Source: Escherichia coli (GTDB lineage: Bacteria; Pseudomonadota; Gammaproteobacteria; Enterobacterales; Enterobacteriaceae). From it: 64,000 nt of DNA. The stretch is from NCBI RefSeq assembly GCF_003018255.1, contig NZ_CP027440.1. One strand, 5' to 3'. Of this stretch, positions 699 through 41,552 are shown in pieces. Numbering within the stretch: the first letter of the stretch is position 1; each line of letters begins with the position of its first letter. Below the pieces are notes generated by a model, which was given only the letters and a program-made list of their open reading frames with translations, did not search any database and had not been told where the DNA came from. A program made the translations under genes and the position numbers.

Positions 699-2042
699 AT
701 GGATCAGACATATTCTCTGGAGTCATTCCTCAACCATGTCCAAAAGCGCGACCCGAATCAAACCGAGTTCGCGCAAGCCGTTCGTGAAGTAATGACCACA
801 CTCTGGCCTTTTCTTGAACAAAATCCAAAATATCGTCAGATGTCATTACTGGAGCGTCTGGTTGAACCGGAGCGCGTGATCCAGTTTCGCGTGGTATGGG
901 TTGATGATCGCAACCAGGTGCAGGTCAACCGCGCATGGCGCGTGCAATTCAGCTCCGCTATCGGTCCGTACAAAGGCGGTATGCGCTTCCACCCTTCAGT
1001 AAACCTTTCCATTCTCAAATTCCTCGGCTTCGAGCAAACCTTTAAAAATGCCCTGACAACCCTGCCGATGGGCGGTGGTAAAGGCGGCAGCGATTTCGAC
1101 CCGAAAGGGAAAAGCGAAGGCGAAGTTATGCGTTTTTGCCAGGCGCTGATGACTGAACTGTATCGCCACCTGGGCGCGGATACTGACGTTCCGGCAGGTG
1201 ATATCGGCGTTGGTGGTCGTGAAGTCGGCTTTATGGCGGGGATGATGAAAAAGCTCTCCAACAATACCGCCTGCGTCTTCACCGGTAAGGGCCTTTCATT
1301 TGGCGGCAGTCTTATTCGCCCGGAAGCTACCGGCTACGGTCTGGTTTATTTCACCGAAGCAATGCTAAAACGCCACGGTATGGGTTTTGAAGGGATGCGA
1401 GTTTCCGTTTCTGGCTCCGGCAACGTCGCCCAGTACGCTATCGAAAAAGCGATGGAATTTGGTGCTCGTGTGATCACTGCGTCAGACTCCAGCGGCACTG
1501 TAGTTGATGAAAGCGGATTCACGAAAGAGAAACTGGCACGTCTTATCGAAATCAAAGCCAGCCGCGATGGTCGAGTGGCTGATTACGCCAAAGAATTTGG
1601 TCTGGTCTATCTCGAAGGCCAACAACCGTGGTCTGTACCGGTTGATATCGCCCTGCCTTGCGCCACCCAGAACGAACTGGATGTTGACGCCGCGCATCAG
1701 CTTATCGCCAATGGCGTTAAAGCCGTCGCCGAAGGGGCAAATATGCCGACCACCATCGAAGCGACTGAACTGTTCCAGCAGGCAGGCGTACTGTTTGCAC
1801 CGGGTAAAGCGGCTAATGCTGGCGGTGTAGCAACATCGGGCCTGGAAATGGCGCAAAACGCTGCGCGCCTGGGCTGGAAAGCCGAGAAAGTTGACGCACG
1901 TTTGCATCACATCATGCTGGATATCCACCATGCCTGTGTTGAGCATGGTGGTGAAGGTGAGCAAACCAACTACGTGCAGGGGGCGAACATTGCCGGTTTT
2001 GTGAAGGTTGCGGATGCGATGTTAAGCCAGGGCGTGATTTAA
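699..2042 (+). CDS. gdhA: NADP-specific glutamate dehydrogenase
   Basis: 447-aa ORF with GdhA hallmarks (GGGKGGSDFDPKGKS, catalytic Lys region); recognised as E. coli GdhA. Confidence 0.97.
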   Translation: MDQTYSLESFLNHVQKRDPNQTEFAQAVREVMTTLWPFLEQNPKYRQMSLLERLVEPERVIQFRVVWVDDRNQVQVNRAWRVQFSSAIGPYKGGMRFHPSVNLSILKFLGFEQTFKNALTTLPMGGGKGGSDFDPKGKSEGEVMRFCQALMTELYRHLGADTDVPAGDIGVGGREVGFMAGMMKKLSNNTACVFTGKGLSFGGSLIRPEATGYGLVYFTEAMLKRHGMGFEGMRVSVSGSGNVAQYAIEKAMEFGARVITASDSSGTVVDESGFTKEKLARLIEIKASRDGRVADYAKEFGLVYLEGQQPWSVPVDIALPCATQNELDVDAAHQLIANGVKAVAEGANMPTTIEATELFQQAGVLFAPGKAANAGGVATSGLEMAQNAARLGWKAEKVDARLHHIMLDIHHACVEHGGEGEQTNYVQGANIAGFVKVADAMLSQGVI

Positions 2043-2050
2043 GACAATTG

Positions 2051-2082
2051 TGCCGGATACAGCGCAAACGCCTTATCCGGCC
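2051..2082. repeat. REP (repetitive extragenic palindromic) element
   Basis: tgccggatacagcgcaaacgccttatccggcc: imperfect palindrome GCCGGATA...TATCCGGC typical of E. coli REP units, directly downstream of the gdhA stop. Confidence 0.65.
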
Positions 2083-2118
2083 ATAAAAATCTTCAGTATC
2101 AGATGGTTGAAAGAACCT

Positions 2119-4074
2119 TTATATTATCACTCCATTGCCCGCCTCTTCTGATGGCGGGCTTTTTTTCGGCGCTCTCTTGCGTGGCGAATCCTTTTTCTTC
2201 CCTTCTCCACCGCCGGGAGCCATTATTCCCCGAAACTGCCTTACCGACGTGCGCTTTGCCTGATCAATCAACTGGTACAATGTCCCCACCAGCGGCTGCA
2301 TAAAGTCCTGATAGCGACACTGCTTTTCGCTGATTTGCGTCAGCACCGATTCCCAGTGCGCGGTCATGTCCGGTCGCGTCGCCATTTCTGGCAGCGAATG
2401 GAATAGCGCTTTTCCGGCGTCGGTGGAGTGGATATAGCGCCCTTTTTTGGTCAGGAAGCCTCGCTTGAACAGCAGTTCAATAATCCCGGCGCGAGTCGCT
2501 TCTGTCCCCAGACCATCGGTCGCACGAAGGATCTTTTTCAGATCTTTGTCCTGCACAAAACGTGCTATCCCGGTCATCGCTGAAAGCAGTGTTGCATCGG
2601 TAAAATGGCGCGGCGGCTGGGTTTGCCGCTCTACCACTTCACCTTTTTCACACAGCAACTCATCGCCTTTCGCCACCACAGGCAGCGGCGTGCCGTCGTT
2701 TTCTTCATCGCGCTCTTTGCTGCCTAACAGTGTGCGCCAGCCTGCTTCAGCAAGAAAACGGGCTTTAGCGACAAATTTGCCTTTGGCAATGTCCAGTTCG
2801 ATAACACACTTGCGGAACACCGCATCCGGGCAGAACTGCATCAAATACTGACGGGCAATCAGGTTATAGACCTTCGCTTCGTTCTCCGTCAGGTTGATCG
2901 CAGAACTCCGTGCGGTCGGGATGATGGCGTGGTGCGCATCGACTTTTTTGTCATCCCAACAGCGGTTGCGTATATCTGGATCGACCACTGGCTGCGGCAA
3001 CAGATCTGGTGCATGAACGCTGATAGCATTCATCACCGCGTGGCGTCCGGCAAAATGTTCTTCTGGCAAATAGCGGCAATCGGAACGCGGATAAGTGATT
3101 AGCTTGTGCGTTTCGTACAGCTTCTGGCAGATATCAAGCACGTTCTGCGCGCTCAGACCAAAACGTTTAGCCGCTTCAATCTGCAACGCCGAAAGCGAAA
3201 AAGGCAGCGGCGCGGATTCTGATTCCCGTTTATCGTTATAGCTGGTGACAATAGCTGGTTGACCACTAATGCGGTTAACCACATGCTCCGCCAGTGGACG
3301 ATGTAATAAGCGCCCTTCTTCATCCTGGTACGGTTCACACGCTTCGCTCGGTTGCCAGATAGCGGTAAACCGCTCATCGGCAGGTGTCACGATATGTGCT
3401 TTGACTTCAAAGAAGTCTTTCGCCACGAAGTTTTCAATCTCTTCGTCGCGGCGCACCACCAGTCCGAGTACGGGCGTCTGCACGCGTCCCACGGAAAGCA
3501 CGCCCTGATAACCGGCATTGCGACCGAGAATGGTATACGCACGGGTCATATTAATGCCGTACAGCCAGTCAGCTCGCGCACGCGCCAGTGCAGAAACGCA
3601 CAGCGGTACAAACTCGCTATTGGAGCGAAGACGATCGATCGCCCGCTCAACCGCCTGCGGGTTCAGGTCGTTTATCAAACAACGCTGTACCTGCTGGCGC
3701 TTTTCCGGTGCCAGTTGCAGGTAGTCCAGCACTTCATCCACCAGCAGTTGCCCTTCGCGATCCGGGTCTCCGGCGTGAACGATTTCGCTGGCTTCATGCA
3801 GGAAGCGTTTGATGACATTAAGTTGTTTAGTCACGGAGGGTCGGGGCTGTAATTGCCACTTTTCCGGGACAATCGGCAAATCCGCAAGATTCCAGCGCGC
3901 ATAGCGGCTGTCGTAGGCGTCTGGCTGCGCCTGCTCAAGCAGGTGACCGATACACCAGGTCACCACCTGACCATTACCGCACTCGATAAAGCCATCGCCT
4001 TTCCGGTGCGGTTTAGGCAGGACATCAGCAATGGCGCGCGCCAGACTCGGTTTTTCGGCAATAAACAACCGCAT
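2119..4074 (-). CDS. topB: DNA topoisomerase III
   Basis: Track ORF 2119..4131; start placed at internal [10 protein letters not shown] (recalled TopB N-terminus), giving 651 aa; Toprim/topo IA motifs; lysine/arginine-rich C-terminal tail. Confidence 0.92.
2137..2166 (+). terminator. Rho-independent terminator downstream of gdhA (lies inside the 3' end of the topB ORF)
   Basis: gcccgcc-tcttctgat-ggcgggc followed by TTTTTTT. Confidence 0.65.
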
Positions 4075-7807: not shown

Positions 7808-7971
7808 GTCTTGTACTGAGTGGCCGACAGATCGTCGGCCACATTTTTTTACCTCGACGAATCCTCTTCCCGCTGTCTCGCCCCATATTTCCTTATCCGC
7901 ATAGTATCAGGTGCGCTCCCCCTTCCTCACGTATATACTTTTGCTCTTTCGATATCATTCATATCAATATC

Positions 7972-8988
7972 ATGCAAAAGAAATCAATTTACGTCGCCTA
8001 CACGGGCGGGACCATCGGGATGCAGCGTTCCGAGCAGGGTTATATTCCGGTGTCAGGTCATCTACAGCGCCAACTGGCGCTGATGCCGGAATTCCATCGC
8101 CCGGAGATGCCAGATTTCACTATTCATGAATATACGCCATTGATGGATTCTTCTGATATGACGCCAGAAGACTGGCAGCATATTGCTGAAGATATTAAAG
8201 CGCACTATGACGACTATGATGGTTTTGTCATTCTGCACGGCACAGACACGATGGCGTATACCGCCTCTGCACTGTCGTTCATGCTCGAGAATCTCGGTAA
8301 ACCGGTCATTGTGACAGGGTCACAAATCCCGCTGGCTGAGTTACGCTCTGACGGACAAATTAATCTGCTGAATGCGTTGTACGTTGCGGCGAATTATCCT
8401 ATCAACGAAGTAACTCTCTTTTTTAATAATCGACTGTATCGTGGCAACAGAACCACCAAAGCCCATGCCGATGGTTTTGATGCGTTTGCCTCTCCAAACC
8501 TTCCTCCGTTACTGGAAGCAGGTATCCATATTCGCCGTTTGAATACGCCACCCGCCCCGCACGGTGAAGGGGAATTGATCGTTCATCCAATCACGCCGCA
8601 ACCAATTGGCGTAGTGACGATTTATCCGGGGATTTCTGCTGACGTCGTGCGCAATTTTCTGCGCCAACCTGTGAAAGCATTGATTCTGCGCTCATATGGC
8701 GTGGGTAATGCGCCACAAAACAAAGCCTTCCTGCAGGAATTACAAGAAGCCAGCGATCGCGGTATTGTGGTGGTCAACCTGACACAATGTATGTCCGGTA
8801 AAGTGAACATGGGTGGTTATGCCACCGGTAACGCCCTCGCCCATGCCGGCGTTATTGGCGGTGCAGATATGACTGTAGAAGCCACGCTAACCAAACTGCA
8901 TTACCTGCTTAGCCAGGAACTTGATACTGAAACCATTCGCAAGGCCATGAGCCAAAACCTGCGTGGCGAACTGACGCCGGATGATTAA
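7972..8988 (+). CDS. ansA: Cytoplasmic L-asparaginase I
   Basis: Start at MQKKSIYVAYTGGTIGM gives 338 aa; asparaginase TGGTIG motif. Confidence 0.95.
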   Translation: MQKKSIYVAYTGGTIGMQRSEQGYIPVSGHLQRQLALMPEFHRPEMPDFTIHEYTPLMDSSDMTPEDWQHIAEDIKAHYDDYDGFVILHGTDTMAYTASALSFMLENLGKPVIVTGSQIPLAELRSDGQINLLNALYVAANYPINEVTLFFNNRLYRGNRTTKAHADGFDAFASPNLPPLLEAGIHIRRLNTPPAPHGEGELIVHPITPQPIGVVTIYPGISADVVRNFLRQPVKALILRSYGVGNAPQNKAFLQELQEASDRGIVVVNLTQCMSGKVNMGGYATGNALAHAGVIGGADMTVEATLTKLHYLLSQELDTETIRKAMSQNLRGELTPDD

Positions 8989-8998
8989 GGAGACTGCA

Positions 8999-9640
8999 AT
9001 GCACCCTCGCGCCCTGTTACTGGTCGATTTACAAAATGATTTCTGTGCTGGTGGCGCGCTCGCCGTGCCGGAAGGTGACAGTACGGTGGATGTCGCTAAC
9101 CGCCTGATTGACTGGTGCCAGTCGCGCGGTGAAGCGGTTATCGCCAGTCAGGACTGGCACCCGGCGAATCACGGCAGTTTTGCCAGTCAGCACGGTGTAG
9201 AGCCTTATACGCCAGGCCAACTCGACGGTTTGCCACAAACCTTCTGGCCAGATCACTGTGTGCAGAACAGTGAAGGCGCACAATTACATCCGTTACTGAA
9301 CCAAAAAGCGATCGCAGCGGTGTTCCATAAAGGCGAAAATCCTTTAGTTGACAGTTACAGTGCCTTTTTTGATAACGGCCGTCGGCAGAAAACCACGCTC
9401 GATGACTGGTTACGCGATCATGAAATCGATGAATTGATCATTATGGGTCTGGCTACTGACTATTGCGTGAAGTTTACCGTGCTGGACGCGTTACAGTTAG
9501 GTTATAAGGTTAATGTGATTACCGATGGTTGTCGTGGCGTGAATATCCAGCCACAGGACAGTGCGCACGCGTTTATGGAGATGTCAGCAGCTGGGGCAAC
9601 GCTATATACGCTGGCAGATTGGGAAGAGACGCAGGAGTAA
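8999..9640 (+). CDS. pncA: Nicotinamidase/pyrazinamidase
   Basis: Start at MHPRALLLVDLQNDFC gives 213 aa; isochorismatase-fold catalytic residues. Confidence 0.92.
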   Translation: MHPRALLLVDLQNDFCAGGALAVPEGDSTVDVANRLIDWCQSRGEAVIASQDWHPANHGSFASQHGVEPYTPGQLDGLPQTFWPDHCVQNSEGAQLHPLLNQKAIAAVFHKGENPLVDSYSAFFDNGRRQKTTLDDWLRDHEIDELIIMGLATDYCVKFTVLDALQLGYKVNVITDGCRGVNIQPQDSAHAFMEMSAAGATLYTLADWEETQE

Positions 9641-9660
9641 TATTAGTTGGATTCATCTCT

Positions 9661-9691
9661 GGCCTACATTTCCTCAATGACATTGTAGGCC
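9661..9691. other. Inverted repeat (8-bp stem GGCCTACA / TGTAGGCC, 15-nt loop) in the pncA-yeaC junction
   Basis: Read directly from ggcctacatttcctcaatgacattgtaggcc; no T-run follows, so not a canonical terminator. Confidence 0.3.
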
Positions 9692-9800
9692 AGGTAATAC
9701 TTGTTAGTGTTGCATTTAACCTACTCGCAGCTAAAACACGACATCCGAACAAGTCTATTTGCCCTCCCTTAATAACAGGCTTAAATACTAGACAACTCAT

Positions 9801-10073
9801 TCACTTAAACATGGCAATAGGCTTTGCTGAGATACCAAAATCTTCTTTTAACTGTTGTTTGCTCTTCATGACCATCTGACCATTTGTGTCAATTGTCATA
9901 TGCTGTGCTTCGGTATTATTACGGGCTTGCCACAGCATCACCAGTTGCAGGCAGTTCTCTTTTTGTTCCTCGGTCAACGCAACGCCATCAGGCCATTTCC
10001 CCAGTTCAACGGCGGTCGACAAACGCTGGTATACCTCAGGCGTCATGCTGTTGATAATGTCATCAAGATTCAT
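9801..10073 (-). CDS. yeaC: DUF1315 protein YeaC
   Basis: Start at MNLDDIINSMTPEVYQRL gives 90 aa; directly downstream of msrB. Confidence 0.85.
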   Translation of the reverse strand: MNLDDIINSMTPEVYQRLSTAVELGKWPDGVALTEEQKENCLQLVMLWQARNNTEAQHMTIDTNGQMVMKSKQQLKEDFGISAKPIAMFK

Positions 10074-10114: not shown

Positions 10115-10528
10115 TCAACCGTTGATTTCTTCGCCGTTTTCGCCATCGGTAAAGCGTAAAGAGGCAGAGTTAACACAATAACGTTCGCCCGTTGGCTGCG
10201 GCCCGTCGGGGAAGACATGCCCCAGATGGGCATCACAGTTACCGCAACGAATTTCTATGCGCTGCATTCCATGTGACAAGTCTTTGATATAACAAATAGA
10301 TTCTTCACTCACCGGTTCGTAGAAACTGGGCCAGCCACAGCCGGAATCATACTTGGTTTGGGAATGAAACAGCGGGGCATCGCAGATCAAACAGTGATAT
10401 ACGCCGTCACGCTTGTTATGCAGTAAACGACCCGTAAATGGCGGTTCTGTCCCATGATTCTGCGTCACGTAGAACTGCATCTCGGACAAATTTTTTTTCA
10501 GTTCTTCTGCCGAAGGTTTATTAGCCAT
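10115..10528 (-). CDS. msrB: Peptide methionine-(R)-S-oxide reductase MsrB
   Basis: Start at [12 protein letters not shown] gives 137 aa; two CxxC zinc pairs and catalytic C-terminal Cys region. Confidence 0.93.
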
Positions 10529-10798
10529 TTGCTCACATCTCACTTTAATCGTGCTCACATTACGTGACTGATTCTAACAAAACATTAACACCAACTGGCA
10601 AAATTTTGTCCTAAACTTGATCTCGACGAAATGGCTGCACCTAAATCGTGATGAAAATCACATTTTTATCGTAATTGCCCTTTAAAATTCGGGGCGCCGA
10701 CCCCATGTGGTCTCAAGCCCAAAGGAAGAGTGAGGCGAGTCAGTCGCGTAATGCTTAGGCACAGGATTGATTTGTCGCAATGATTGACACGATTCCGC

Positions 10799-10826
10799 TT
10801 GACGCTGCGTAAGGTTTTTGTAATTT
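10799..10826 (+). promoter_or_regulatory. Candidate gapA sigma70 promoter (-35 TTGACG, 16-nt spacer, -10 TAATTT)
   Basis: Hexamers read directly about 45 nt upstream of the gapA ATG; gapA is known to have multiple promoters, exact assignment not verified. Confidence 0.4.
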
Positions 10827-10857
10827 TACAGGCAACCTTTTATTCACTAACAAATAG

Positions 10858-11865
<1,008 letters not shown>

Positions 11866-11887
11866 GTTGAGATGACACTGTGATCTA

Positions 11888-11917
11888 AAAAGAGCGACTT
11901 CGGTCGCTCTTTTTTTT
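11888..11917 (+). terminator. Rho-independent terminator of gapA
   Basis: agagcgac-ttcg-gtcgctct followed by TTTTTTT. Confidence 0.8.
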
Positions 11918-11948
11918 ACCTGATAAAATGAAGTTAAAGGACTGCGTC

Positions 11949-12833
11949 ATGATTAAGAAAATTTTTGCCCTTCCGGTCATCGAACAAATCTCCCCTGTCC
12001 TCTCCCGTCGTAAACTGGATGAACTGGACCTCATTGTGGTCGATCATCCCCAGGTAAAAGCCTCTTTTGCATTACAGGGCGCACACCTTCTCTCATGGAA
12101 ACCTGCGGGTGAAGAAGAAGTTCTGTGGTTGAGCAATAACACACCGTTCAAAAATGGCGTCGCTATTCGCGGTGGCGTACCGGTTTGCTGGCCGTGGTTT
12201 GGTCCGGCTGCACAACAAGGTCTGCCTGCGCACGGTTTTGCCCGCAACCTGCCGTGGACGCTGAAATCACATCGTGAAGATGCTGATGGCGTAGCGCTGA
12301 CTTTTGAATTGACACAAAGCGAAGAGACGAAAAAATTCTGGCCACACGACTTTAAGCTATTAGCGCATTTCCGCGTGGGTAAAGCCTGTGAAATCGATCT
12401 TGAAGCACACGGCGAATTTGAAACCACCTCTGCCCTGCATACCTACTTTAACGTGGGTGATATCACTAAGGTAAGCGTCAGTGGACTGGGCGATCGCTTC
12501 ATTGATAAAGTGAATGACGCGAAAGAAGATGTACTGACCGACGGTATTCAGACCTTCCCTGACCGTACCGATCGCGTGTATCTGAATCCGCAAGATTGCA
12601 GCGTGATTAATGACGAAGCGCTGAATCGTATTATCGCCGTAGGCCACCAGCATCATCTGAACGTTGTAGGCTGGAACCCAGGACCGGCGCTTTCAGTTAG
12701 CATGGGCGATATGCCGGATGATGGCTACAAGACCTTTGTTTGTGTAGAAACAGCTTACGCCTCAGAAACGCAAAAAGTCACCAAAGAGAAACCTGCACAT
12801 CTGGCGCAATCCATTCGCGTTGCGAAACGTTAA
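11949..12833 (+). CDS. yeaD: Glucose-6-phosphate 1-epimerase (aldose 1-epimerase family) YeaD
   Basis: Start at MIKKIFALPVIEQ gives 294 aa. Confidence 0.88.
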   Translation: MIKKIFALPVIEQISPVLSRRKLDELDLIVVDHPQVKASFALQGAHLLSWKPAGEEEVLWLSNNTPFKNGVAIRGGVPVCWPWFGPAAQQGLPAHGFARNLPWTLKSHREDADGVALTFELTQSEETKKFWPHDFKLLAHFRVGKACEIDLEAHGEFETTSALHTYFNVGDITKVSVSGLGDRFIDKVNDAKEDVLTDGIQTFPDRTDRVYLNPQDCSVINDEALNRIIAVGHQHHLNVVGWNPGPALSVSMGDMPDDGYKTFVCVETAYASETQKVTKEKPAHLAQSIRVAKR

Positions 12834-19961: not shown

Positions 19962-20141
19962 GTGCAAAAATATTCAGAGCCATGCTTTTTGCGTGGCTTT
20001 TGCATACAATTTATTACTATTACCCCTAAATTTCCCCTCCCCAGCGGCGCAGAGATGAGTATAATTAGCGCCCCTGTGCCAGGCCGCAATCGAACTTTAT
20101 CTGGTTTTCTCGTTTCACTAACCGAAGGAGTGCCATTTATC

Positions 20142-31146: not shown

Positions 31147-31348
31147 CGTTCTTTGCAGTAAATAACCTGCGTCATTTCACCTTTTATTGTTTCCGTTTCG
31201 TGTTTTATGGCTTTCCGTATTCTTAATTGTTTAATTTATGTAACATGCAAATAATCAATTTGTTAATCACGACATACAACTCATTACCCTGCAAATAATT
31301 ACAACTGGCAAAAGCCAGAGACGGGCTTTTATGCCCAGGAGATGACTC

Positions 31349-32959
31349 ATGATGAGCAATGTTAAGAAAAAAGATGTGCCGCTGATAAGCATCAGCCTGG
31401 TGGCCATTCTTTTCATCGCAGCTGCATTAAGCCTTTTCCCACAACAATCGGCCGACGCGGCCAACGCAATATACACTTTTGTTACGCGTACGTTAGGTTC
31501 CGCCGTACAGGTATTGGTTTTGCTGGCAATGGGACTGGTGATTTATTTAGCCACCAGTAAATACGGCAATATTCGTCTTGGCGAAGGAAAACCGGAATAC
31601 AGCACGCTCTCATGGCTGTTTATGTTTATTTGTGCCGGTTTAGGTTCTTCTACGCTTTATTGGGGGGTTGCTGAATGGGCCTATTATTATCAAACGCCTG
31701 GATTAAATATCGCACCGCGTTCACAACAGGCACTCGAATTTAGCGTTCCCTACTCCTTCTTCCACTGGGGCATCAGCGCCTGGGCAACTTATACGCTGGC
31801 CTCATTAATCATGGCTTATCACTTTCATGTGCGGAAAAATAAAGGGCTGAGCCTTTCCGGCATTATTGCTGCTATTACCGGCGTTCGCCCGCAAGGCCCG
31901 TGGGGAAAACTGGTCGATTTGATGTTCCTGATCGCCACTGTCGGCGCACTGACCATTTCCCTTGTTGTCACCGCAGCAACCTTTACCCGTGGGCTTTCCG
32001 CGCTGACCGGTTTACCCGATAACTTTACCGTACAGGCATTTGTGATCCTGCTTTCCGGCGGCATTTTTTGCCTAAGCTCGTGGATTGGTATCAACAACGG
32101 TTTGCAACGTCTAAGCAAAATGGTTGGCTGGGGCGCGTTCCTGCTGCCATTACTGGTGCTGATTGTCGGTCCAACCGAATTTATTACCAACAGCATCATC
32201 AATGCCATCGGCCTGACCACGCAAAACTTCCTGCAAATGAGCTTATTCACCGATCCGCTTGGCGATGGTTCATTTACCCGCAACTGGACCGTTTTCTACT
32301 GGCTGTGGTGGATCTCATACACGCCTGGCGTAGCAATGTTTGTCACCCGCGTTTCCCGCGGTCGTAAGATTAAAGAAGTTATCTGGGGACTGATCCTCGG
32401 CAGCACCGTCGGTTGCTGGTTCTTCTTCGGCGTAATGGAAAGCTATGCCATTCACCAGTTTATCAATGGCGTAATCAACGTCCCACAGGTGCTGGAAACA
32501 CTGGGCGGCGAGACAGCTGTGCAGCAAGTTCTGATGTCGTTGCCAGCCGGTAAATTGTTCCTCGCCGCATACCTGGGCGTGATGATTATTTTCCTTGCCT
32601 CGCATATGGATGCGGTGGCCTACACCATGGCGGCAACCAGTACGCGTAATCTCCAGGAAGGTGACGATCCTGACCGTGGGCTGCGTCTTTTCTGGTGCGT
32701 GGTAATTACCCTGATCCCGCTTTCAATTCTTTTCACTGGCGCGTCGCTGGAAACGATGAAAACCACCGTCGTACTCACAGCCCTTCCGTTCCTCGTCATT
32801 TTACTGGTGAAAGTCGGCGGATTTATTCGCTGGCTGAAACAGGATTACGCCGACATTCCGGCTCATCATGTTGAACATTATCTCCCGCAGACACCGGTTG
32901 AAGTCCTGGAAAAAACGCCAGTGCTCCCTGCGGGAACCGTATTCAAAGGCGACAACTGA
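31349..32959 (+). CDS. yeaV: BCCT-family transporter YeaV
   Basis: 536-aa ORF from first ATG; BCCT fold; true start may be downstream. Confidence 0.85.
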
Positions 32960-39641: not shown

Positions 39642-41552
39642 TTACCTGGAGGATGGTATCGCAAGGAAACGAACCGCACGGGCAATGTCACGGGTGCGCG
39701 GCGCTGGCGGCAGACTGGCGAGAAACGTCGCGCCGTAAGGGCGCATCACCAGCCGATTGTCGCAAATCACCAGCACGCCGCGATCGTCAGCGTCGCGAAT
39801 CAGTCGCCCTACCCCCTGTTTGAGAGTAATGACCGCATCCGGCAGCTGTACTTCATCGAACGGGTCGCCACCGCGCAAACGGCAATCTTCCATGCGCGCT
39901 TTTAACAGTGGATCATCCGGCGAGGTAAACGGCAATTTGTCGATAATCACCAATGACAGCGTATCGCCACGCACGTCCACCCCTTCCCAGAAGCTGCTGG
40001 TTGCCACAAGAAGCGCGTTACCGGCGCTGACAAATTGCTGCAACAGTTGCCCTTTGCTGGTTTCCCCCTGCAACAAAACGGGAAGCGTCATGGTAGCGCG
40101 GAACTGCTCGGCCAGATCGCGCATCATGGCGTGCGAGGTACAAAGCATAAAACAACGACCGTTGTTAGCTTCGATGATCGGTCGCAACATTGCCGCCAGT
40201 TGCCGTGCGGAGCCCGGTTGATTGGTTTGCGGCAGGTTGCGCGGCACACAGAGTAACGCCTGGCGGCTGTAATCAAACGGGCTGGGTAACAGCAACGACT
40301 CTGCCTGTTCAATGCCAAGCCGCGAGGTAAAATGATGCAGATCGTCATTCACCGACAGCGTTGCCGAGGTAAAAATCCAGCTACCTGGCTTTTGCGCCAT
40401 TAACTCTTTGAATTTATCCGCCACGCTAAGCGGCGTCAGCGCGAGAGTGAAATGGCGCGAGGTACATTCGTACCAGTAGCTGTAACCCGGCTGATTAATC
40501 TCTTTTAGCCGTTTGAGTCGCGTGCGATACAACGTGGCGCGTTCAAATGCCGCATCCAGCAAGGCGGAACGCCCCAGCGAAAGTTTCGCCACGTCATAAC
40601 AAAGTTCCAGGGTGTCATCGAGCAGTAAAAACGCCCGCTGAATTTGCGGATTAGCTAACAGTTCGCGCAGGTTGCCACGATAACCAGGCTCACCGAGTTG
40701 CAGACGAAAATCCTGCGCGCTCTGGGCAAGGCGGTCGGCGCACTTTTGTAACTGCTGGGTGTCTTTTAATTCGGTGCGGTAGGCGATGGTGATGTCTTTT
40801 GCCAGGTCGAGCAGTTGTCGACTGGAGAGTGACTGACCAAAATACTGGCTGGCAATGTCAGGCAGTTGGTGGGCTTCGTCGAAGATCATCACGTCAGCTT
40901 CCGGGATCAGTTCGCCAAATCCACTCTCTTTCACCACCATATCCGCCAGAAAGAGATGATGGTTTACCACCACCACATCGGCGTCCATCGCTTTTTTGCG
41001 TGCTTTGACCACAAAGCAATCTTTATACATCGGGCAGTCGCTGCCAAGACAGTTGTCGTTGGTGCTGGTGACCAGCGGCCACGCCTGTGAATCTTCCGCC
41101 ACGCTGACGCAGGTGCTGATATCACCATCGACTGTTTGATTAGACCAGGAGCGCAGCAGGATCACATCGCTTAAGATTTGTACCGGCAGATCGCCCCCCG
41201 CCAGCGCCTGCTGTTCGAGACGCTCGAGGCAGAGGTAGTTTGAGCGCCCTTTCAGCAACGCCACATTGCCCGTGTATTTCAATGCCTTTGAGACTGTTGG
41301 CAAATCGCGGCTGTAGAGCTGATCCTGCAACGCTTTTGAGCCGGTCGAGATAATGACTTTCTTTTTCGCCCGCAGCGCAGGAGCCAGGTAAGCGTAGGTT
41401 TTGCCCGTACCGGTTCCTGCTTCCACCACCAGCGGCTGGCCTTTTTCTATCGCCTGGGTGACGGCTACCGCCATCTGTCGCTGTGGTTCTCGCGGCTTAA
41501 AGCCTGGTATCGCTTTCGCCAGCTGACCGTCTGGTGCAAAATCGTCCGTCAC
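39642..41552 (-). CDS. yoaA: DinG-family ATP-dependent DNA helicase YoaA
   Basis: 636-aa ORF with Walker A GTGKT, DEAH box and Fe-S cysteines. Confidence 0.92.
   Translation of the reverse strand: MTDDFAPDGQLAKAIPGFKPREPQRQMAVAVTQAIEKGQPLVVEAGTGTGKTYAYLAPALRAKKKVIISTGSKALQDQLYSRDLPTVSKALKYTGNVALLKGRSNYLCLERLEQQALAGGDLPVQILSDVILLRSWSNQTVDGDISTCVSVAEDSQAWPLVTSTNDNCLGSDCPMYKDCFVVKARKKAMDADVVVVNHHLFLADMVVKESGFGELIPEADVMIFDEAHQLPDIASQYFGQSLSSRQLLDLAKDITIAYRTELKDTQQLQKCADRLAQSAQDFRLQLGEPGYRGNLRELLANPQIQRAFLLLDDTLELCYDVAKLSLGRSALLDAAFERATLYRTRLKRLKEINQPGYSYWYECTSRHFTLALTPLSVADKFKELMAQKPGSWIFTSATLSVNDDLHHFTSRLGIEQAESLLLPSPFDYSRQALLCVPRNLPQTNQPGSARQLAAMLRPIIEANNGRCFMLCTSHAMMRDLAEQFRATMTLPVLLQGETSKGQLLQQFVSAGNALLVATSSFWEGVDVRGDTLSLVIIDKLPFTSPDDPLLKARMEDCRLRGGDPFDEVQLPDAVITLKQGVGRLIRDADDRGVLVICDNRLVMRPYGATFLASLPPAPRTRDIARAVRFLAIPSSR

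Follow-up and report, generated by a model that had tools for sequence, protein, structure and literature searches.

The stretch of Escherichia coli DNA analysed here (64,000 nucleotides, hereafter the window) has pncA adjoining yeaC at a site where K-12 MG1655 carries the genes ydjE to ydjL, and we regard it as very probable (roughly 0.85) that this arrangement is a natural empty-site haplotype of the pncA–yeaC locus which is old, is exchanged by homologous recombination in the flanks and did not arise by a recent deletion in the lineage. Both its gene order and the identity of its junction place the window in the natural ydj-negative (empty-site) allele class. Absence of ydjE–ydjL from a fifth of E. 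coli is already documented and is ordinary accessory-genome variation (PMC9602453); what is mildly new is that the haplotype without ydj is old, distinct in sequence and common to E. coli and a cryptic Escherichia species.

Absence of the ydj cluster between pncA and yeaC

The features of the locus, with their positions in the window, are:
7972–8988, plus strand: ansA (L-asparaginase 1), left flank, colinear with K-12 ansA and identical to ansA of strain 104
8999–9640, plus strand: pncA (nicotinamidase/pyrazinamidase), final gene ahead of the junction (Pfam Isochorismatase, E = 5e-34; RefSeq annotation)
9641–9800, no strand: pncA–yeaC intergenic junction, the empty-site allele, a spacer of 160 bp
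9659–9693, no strand: hairpin CTGGCCTACA-N15-TGTAGGCCAG with a 10-bp stem in the predicted fold, a conserved element of the pncA 3' flank
9720–9755, no strand: empty-site-specific core, with its left breakpoint at about 9719/9720 from the multiple alignment and its right end at about 9755 from a reading of the alignment
9756–9800, no strand: yeaC-proximal stretch, resembling a diverged counterpart of the hairpin that follows yeaC (ATCCCCTT...AAGGGGAT) in ydj-positive alleles
9801–10073, minus strand: yeaC (DUF1315 protein), first gene past the junction (Pfam DUF1315, E = 3e-27; translation; RefSeq annotation)
10115–10528, minus strand: msrB (methionine-R-sulfoxide reductase B; Pfam SelR, E = 5e-52; annotation)
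10870–11865, plus strand: gapA, colinear with K-12 gapA, the right-flank landmark of an earlier note on this DNA

pncA, with its TAA stop codon at 9638–9640, and yeaC, with its stop codon at 9801–9803 on the minus strand, are convergent, and the distance of 160 bp that the earlier note had given between them is confirmed. The K-12 order on which it had relied (pncA, ydjE, F, G, H, I, J, K, L, yeaC, msrB, gapA) is also correct: in MG1655 the interval between the two stop codons measures 9,173 bp and holds ydjE–ydjL, annotated as two MFS transporters, a DeoR regulator, a kinase, an aldolase and three dehydrogenases/reductases. The pncA stop and the gapA start lie about 1.23 kb apart in the window and 10.24 kb apart in K-12.

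Comparison of the window with K-12 positions 1,842,001–1,922,000 by blastn showed the two to be colinear except for two unrelated indels elsewhere in the window. At the pncA–yeaC locus the alignment jumps from K-12 position 1,852,586 (window 9709) to 1,861,704 (window 9803), skipping K-12 1852587–1861703, and no part of this skipped ydj sequence was detected by blastn anywhere in the 64-kb window, in support of the earlier proposal that the whole cluster is missing relative to K-12. Weak tblastn matches to YdjG (27–30% identity), which were obtained at all loci, fall on the yeaE aldo-keto reductase gene and were taken as a paralogue rather than as ydj. The K-12 locus resembles the window in its flanking genes, their orientation and the hairpin after pncA; homology on the left reaches 58–79 bp beyond the pncA stop and on the right restarts at the yeaC stop, about 45 bp ahead of which there is a faint trace of it. 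The K-12 locus differs in carrying 9.06 kb with eight genes, whose products together break down a sugar acid in the pathway of the kinase YdjH and the aldolase YdjI; ydj-positive genomes have about 9.06 kb at the position taken up in the window by about 40 bp of non-coding DNA unrelated to it.

Frequency and distribution of the empty site in E. coli

The reference set comprised 5,426 complete RefSeq E. coli genomes, searched by megablast with pncA-yeaC-msrB as the query. The contiguous pncA–yeaC arrangement was present in 1,090 of them (20.1%), the remainder matching in two separate places, and a junction-specific segment of 121 bp (9690–9810, overlapping the first 10 bp of yeaC) was found in exactly 1,090. 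The K-12 ydj segment was present in 4,336 (79.9%). Since 1,090 and 4,336 add up to 5,426, the site is a clean two-state polymorphism, and the same sum argues against relocation of ydj elsewhere in junction carriers; ydj DNA was found at no position in the genome of any of the 1,090 junction-carrying strains. Enzymological work on YdjH and YdjI reportedly places the cluster in about 80% of E. coli genomes, the same figure as that given by our counts. By phylogroup, ydjI prevalence is 96.6% in A, 29.9% in B1, 100% in B2, 50% in C, 100% in D and 100% in E, so that ydj absence falls mainly in phylogroups B1 and C (PMC9602453).

The earlier note had proposed that the junction be compared with natural isolates, and this comparison identifies it as a natural ydj-negative allele: over its 160 bp it has no differences (0/160) from that of chicken strain 104 (NZ_CP029164) and eight differences (5%) from the commoner, B1-type allele of O111:H8 strain 8234. 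Natural isolates of chicken, pig and human origin carry junctions of the window type. Strain 104, APEC O78 strains (C-type junction) and strain 8234 (B1-type) share with the window the order ansA-pncA-yeaC-msrB-gapA and contain no ydj DNA. In its wider flanks, strain 104 is just 99.2% identical to the window over 9.6 kb, and the closest complete genome among the 5,426 over window positions 20000–44000 (24 kb) has 99.3% identity. By these identities, the source strain is none of the compared ydj-negative isolates and belongs to a lineage or a mosaic that has no representative among finished genomes.

Anatomy of the empty junction

The earlier note had described an inverted repeat at 9661–9691 in the junction. 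The repeat is real (GGCCTACA-N15-TGTAGGCC, the sole match in the window versus 0 expected by chance), but it is not a property of the junction, as the same hairpin lies at the same position after pncA in ydj-positive K-12, E. whittamii (L005) and Escherichia sp. E1V33 (L007), as well as in a ydj-negative genome of a separate species (L006, described below). Its occurrence in the three ydj-positive genomes rules it out as a deletion scar or recombination site. There is no T-run after the stem of the hairpin at 9659–9693, which is therefore not called as an intrinsic terminator, and no sigma-70-like promoter or intrinsic terminator was predicted in the 160-bp spacer. The spacer folds somewhat better than shuffled sequences on the plus strand (z = -2.9) because of this hairpin. 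The sole Rfam match of the spacer, to an animal microRNA precursor model with 23.7 bits against a gathering score of 72, was discarded as a spurious hairpin match.

The 3' flank of pncA, including the hairpin, is common to Escherichia alleles, whether occupied or empty, up to about window position 9719; Escherichia sp. MOD1-EC7003 (L004) differs in lacking the GGCCTACA hairpin. Past this point ydj-positive alleles run into the 3' end of ydjE, and the window, the B1-type allele and L006 run instead into CTACTCGCAGCTAAAACACGACATCC... The 93 bp from 9710 to 9802 remain unaligned to K-12 by blastn, and they were compared by local alignment, with shuffling controls, to other sequences of the locus. 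Against the whole K-12 cluster the score was 15 (shuffle mean 14.9), and the junction has no detectable relic of the ydj cluster by this comparison with K-12. Scores were likewise near those of shuffles against the spacers of the ydj-positive E. whittamii and E1V33 (8–12; shuffle means 9.0–11.3) and against the Salmonella arizonae junction (9; shuffle mean 10.2). Against the ydj-negative junction of L006 the score was 32, with shuffles at 9.8 +/- 1.5 and a maximum of 16.

L006 is 'Escherichia coli' SCPM-O-B-8794, a separate GTDB species which in its flanks is about 10% diverged from E. coli and in its flanking genes about 5% from the cryptic-clade genomes of E. whittamii and E1V33. Like the window it is ydj-negative, and its junction is homologous over the full length, including the empty-site core and the hairpin; in a global alignment 125 of 156 ungapped columns are identical (about 80%). 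It differs from the window in this 80% identity, in several small indels, in a spacer of 173 bp and in a hairpin after yeaC that looks better preserved. On a by-eye reading of the alignment, 9756–9800 looks like a diverged counterpart of the K-12 hairpin after yeaC in which pairing has degraded, and the L006 version of this stretch looks intermediate between K-12 and the window.

MOD1-EC7003, which is about 95% identical to E. coli, is also ydj-negative with pncA adjoining yeaC across a 108-bp spacer. Unlike the window, it retains 55 bp of K-12-type sequence beside yeaC and has a 50-bp hairpin of its own beside pncA; its junction, the third kind seen among genomes that lack ydj, is a distinct haplotype or the product of a distinct event. 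E. coli BS-04 (L085, 5965–6036) is ydj-negative with an additional deletion of 88 bp in the empty junction, which takes out the empty-site core along with one half of the hairpin and leaves a 72-bp spacer. A reading frame of 75 amino acids on the minus strand (9573–9800), which begins directly after the yeaC stop (TGAATG), was rejected as coding: it has no Pfam match, the B1 allele shows five non-synonymous and two synonymous changes in it (read from the alignment), and its frame is shifted by indels in L006 and broken by the 88-bp deletion in BS-04.

Proposed exchange of the two states between lineages

The pncA and yeaC alleles in the flanks are not grouped according to ydj state. The window pncA differs by 0.3% from that of strain 104 and by 1.9% from that of K-12; it is 0.6% from that of the ydj-positive strain MFDS1022581 versus 2.0% from that of the ydj-negative B1 type, and the B1-type pncA is in turn 0.8% from that of ydj-positive K-12. 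Identical PncA and YeaC protein accessions are present on both ydj backgrounds. As the flanking alleles do not follow the presence of the cluster, we infer that ydj states have been swapped between lineages by homologous recombination in the flanks, with crossovers that would lie very near the indel.

The earlier note had seen no mobile-element or recombinase-site signature at the junction, and this holds: the site is marked by no transposase, integrase or tRNA, nor by any significant direct or inverted repeat. At the borders of the K-12 cluster the longest shared repeats are 7-mers, the modal value in shuffles, and the genes annotated within the cluster in K-12 all have metabolic, transport or regulatory roles, with no integrase, transposase or tRNA. 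An excised mobile genomic island of the integrase/att type was ruled out on these grounds, the border repeats of 7 nt being at chance level. No IS element was found in the 64-kb window.

The two states are alternative alleles of one chromosomal site. With no mobile-element machinery, they are predicted to be exchanged only by homologous recombination in the conserved flanks (ansA-pncA on one side and yeaC-msrB-gapA on the other), and the empty allele would have been inherited or imported as such by the lineage of the window.

Age of the empty allele

The two E. coli subtypes of the empty site are 5% apart over 160 bp, and the ydjL–yeaC spacer diverges by 3.8–5.7% across ydj-positive phylogroups. 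Because the empty subtypes are as far apart as this spacer is, the empty allele appears from its divergence to be about as old within the species as the ydj-positive allele.

The polymorphism may be older still. It is possible, with the odds somewhat against it, that presence and absence of ydj form a long-lived polymorphism which predates the E. coli radiation, crosses Escherichia species boundaries (as a trans-species polymorphism or by inter-species allele exchange) and is kept by niche-dependent selection on catabolism of the YdjH/YdjI substrate, the window carrying the old "empty" allele. This is hinted at by the 80% conservation of the junction in SCPM-O-B-8794, by the 5% between the empty subtypes and by the distances of the SCPM-O-B-8794 pncA, which is 6.2% from E. 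coli pncA and 12–13% from the pncA of its ydj-positive relatives E. whittamii and E1V33; in yeaC-msrB it differs from these two by just about 5%. These pncA distances could possibly be the footprint of inter-species recombination linked to ydj state.

The locus in other Enterobacteriaceae

The outgroup sample consisted of 80 loci, among which E. fergusonii, E. marmotae, E. ruysiae and S. enterica subsp. enterica do not appear by name. E. albertii was discarded as an outgroup, its contig ending 449 bp past yeaC in DNA that matches nothing informative. The interval between yeaC and pncA is a recurrent variable spot across the Enterobacteriaceae, with the following occupants:
ydj cluster: E. whittamii, Escherichia sp. 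E1V33, several Citrobacter, the Klebsiella oxytoca group, Yokenella and an uncultured Enterobacteriaceae genome (UBA3516)
gene of about 2 kb for a 417-aa protein: many Citrobacter, Enterobacter and Klebsiella
7.7–8.6 kb of other cargo: two Kluyvera (L022, L055)

The gene for the 417-aa protein, which has a signal-peptide-like N-terminus (MKRLPLLAALPLLCAS...), lies between yeaC and pncA or ydjL (loci L010, L021 and L051, at about 10271–12300).

This distribution bears on the explanation that the empty site is ancestral in Escherichia and that flank recombination brought the ydj cluster from another genus into E. coli and some of the cryptic clades, the lineage of the window never having had it. 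We consider this unlikely. It would fit with the direct adjacency of yeaC and pncA in Salmonella arizonae and diarizonae, Kosakonia, Phytobacter and many Enterobacter, with the empty junction common to Escherichia species and with the modestly lower GC content of the K-12 cluster (46.4%, below the 48–51% of its flanks). However, the Salmonella junction has no homology to that of the window; ydj adjoins pncA in Citrobacter amalonaticus and UBA3516, and other Citrobacter, the Klebsiella oxytoca group and Yokenella (in which the examined DNA ends before pncA) carry it at the corresponding site on the yeaC side. Moreover, divergence between genera is of the same extent in the ydj genes as in the core genes next to them, and the ydj genes bear no sign of recent transfer, their nucleotide divergence from K-12 being 9–14% in cryptic Escherichia and 17–26% in Citrobacter, Klebsiella and Yokenella, the same range as in adjacent core genes.

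These divergences suggest that ydj has been resident at the locus for a very long time and was not recently imported, in which case the empty allele must ultimately descend from an ancient deletion or replacement. If that event happened within Escherichia, the unmatched core of the junction is unexplained. Both haplotypes are old in Escherichia, and either state may have come first.

Improbable alternatives: recent deletion and engineered origin

Recent deletion in the lineage, by which a K-12-like ydj-positive ancestor would have lost about 9 kb through illegitimate or short-homology recombination, is in our view quite improbable. Phylogroups B1 and C are nested within ydj-positive phylogroups. 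In its favour, ydj absence is concentrated in these two (PMC9602453), the pattern of ydj divergence suggests that the cluster is old at the locus, and the secondary 88-bp deletion in BS-04 shows that small deletions do occur at the site. Against this, about 40–90 bp of the junction are missing from the ydj-positive alleles examined, and the junction is not made up solely of sequence that flanks the deleted segment in the ydj-positive genomes compared (K-12, E. whittamii and E1V33), as a simple deletion would have left it. The junction sequence is about 80% identical in a ydj-negative Escherichia that is about 10% diverged, the empty subtypes of E. coli are already 5% apart, and there is no microhomology or repeat at the borders of the K-12 cluster. 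A recent deletion in a K-12-like allele could not yield a junction whose sequence is missing from the parent and present in a distantly related ydj-negative species. The earlier note had spoken of loss or absence of the cluster; absence is supported, and loss, taken to mean that an ancestor resembling K-12 underwent a deletion specific to this lineage, is not, given that the junction sequence is present in that diverged Escherichia and was seen in none of the ydj-positive alleles examined.

An engineered reduced-genome K-12 derivative, a possibility that the earlier note had raised, or an assembly artefact can be dismissed as having next to no chance: reduced-genome strains do delete ydj, and DGF-298, a design in the K-12 background with which we compared the window, lacks ydjE–ydjL as the window does, but its deletion of 10,563 bp has different endpoints and also removes pncA, yeaC and msrB (pncA through msrB; PMC10652928), whereas the window keeps pncA, yeaC, msrB and yeaK–yeaX, its flanks are 96.7% (left) and 98.3–98.4% (right) rather than about 100% identical to K-12, and its junction is base for base that of many independent finished natural genomes.

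Other differences in the region

Identity of the window to K-12 averages about 98.3% to the right of the junction and 96.7% to the left, with dips to 93–94% at 2001–3000 and 40001–41000. Between gdhA and topB, where K-12 has ynjI (about 1.3 kb, K-12 1843716–1845023), the window has 100 bp with a REP-like palindromic element (gccggatacagcgcaaacgccttatccggcc) at 2044–2143; ynjI is missing here from the window, a second presence/absence difference. At 31253–31476 the window has 224 bp that are missing from K-12 at position 1883151, in the dmlA–yeaV spacer. These 224 bp include the yeaV start codon and 5' coding region (yeaV reading frame 31349–32959), and YeaV has 536 amino acids in the window versus 481 in K-12; the K-12 yeaV transporter gene therefore appears to carry a 5' deletion.

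Two further loci were noted in passing. An extra gene for a SIMPL-domain protein lies between sppA and ansA in O157:H7 FRIK2069 and MFDS1022581 (L088 and L089, 490–1200), and is missing from this spacer in the window (7808–7971), K-12 and Nissle 1917. A contig of 1.3 kb (L008, CALMKU010000237.1) from a metagenome-assembled genome labelled 'uncultured Tolumonas sp.' encodes MsrB and YeaC that are 100% and 98% identical, respectively, to the K-12 proteins, and is probably E. coli contamination of that bin.

Implications

Judging from the absence of the cluster across the 64 kb of its genome covered here, the source strain would be expected to lack a YdjH/YdjI-type pathway with pncA, yeaC and msrB intact. 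It would belong to the approximately 20% of E. coli without the ydj pathway, which matters little beyond annotation. The empty-site core at 9720–9755 could serve as a diagnostic marker of the empty site. K-12 should not be taken as the template for all strains in this region, and neither a mobile element nor engineering is needed to account for the difference; the locus offers a clean test case of how metabolic islands that lack mobility genes may be gained and lost by homologous recombination in their flanks.
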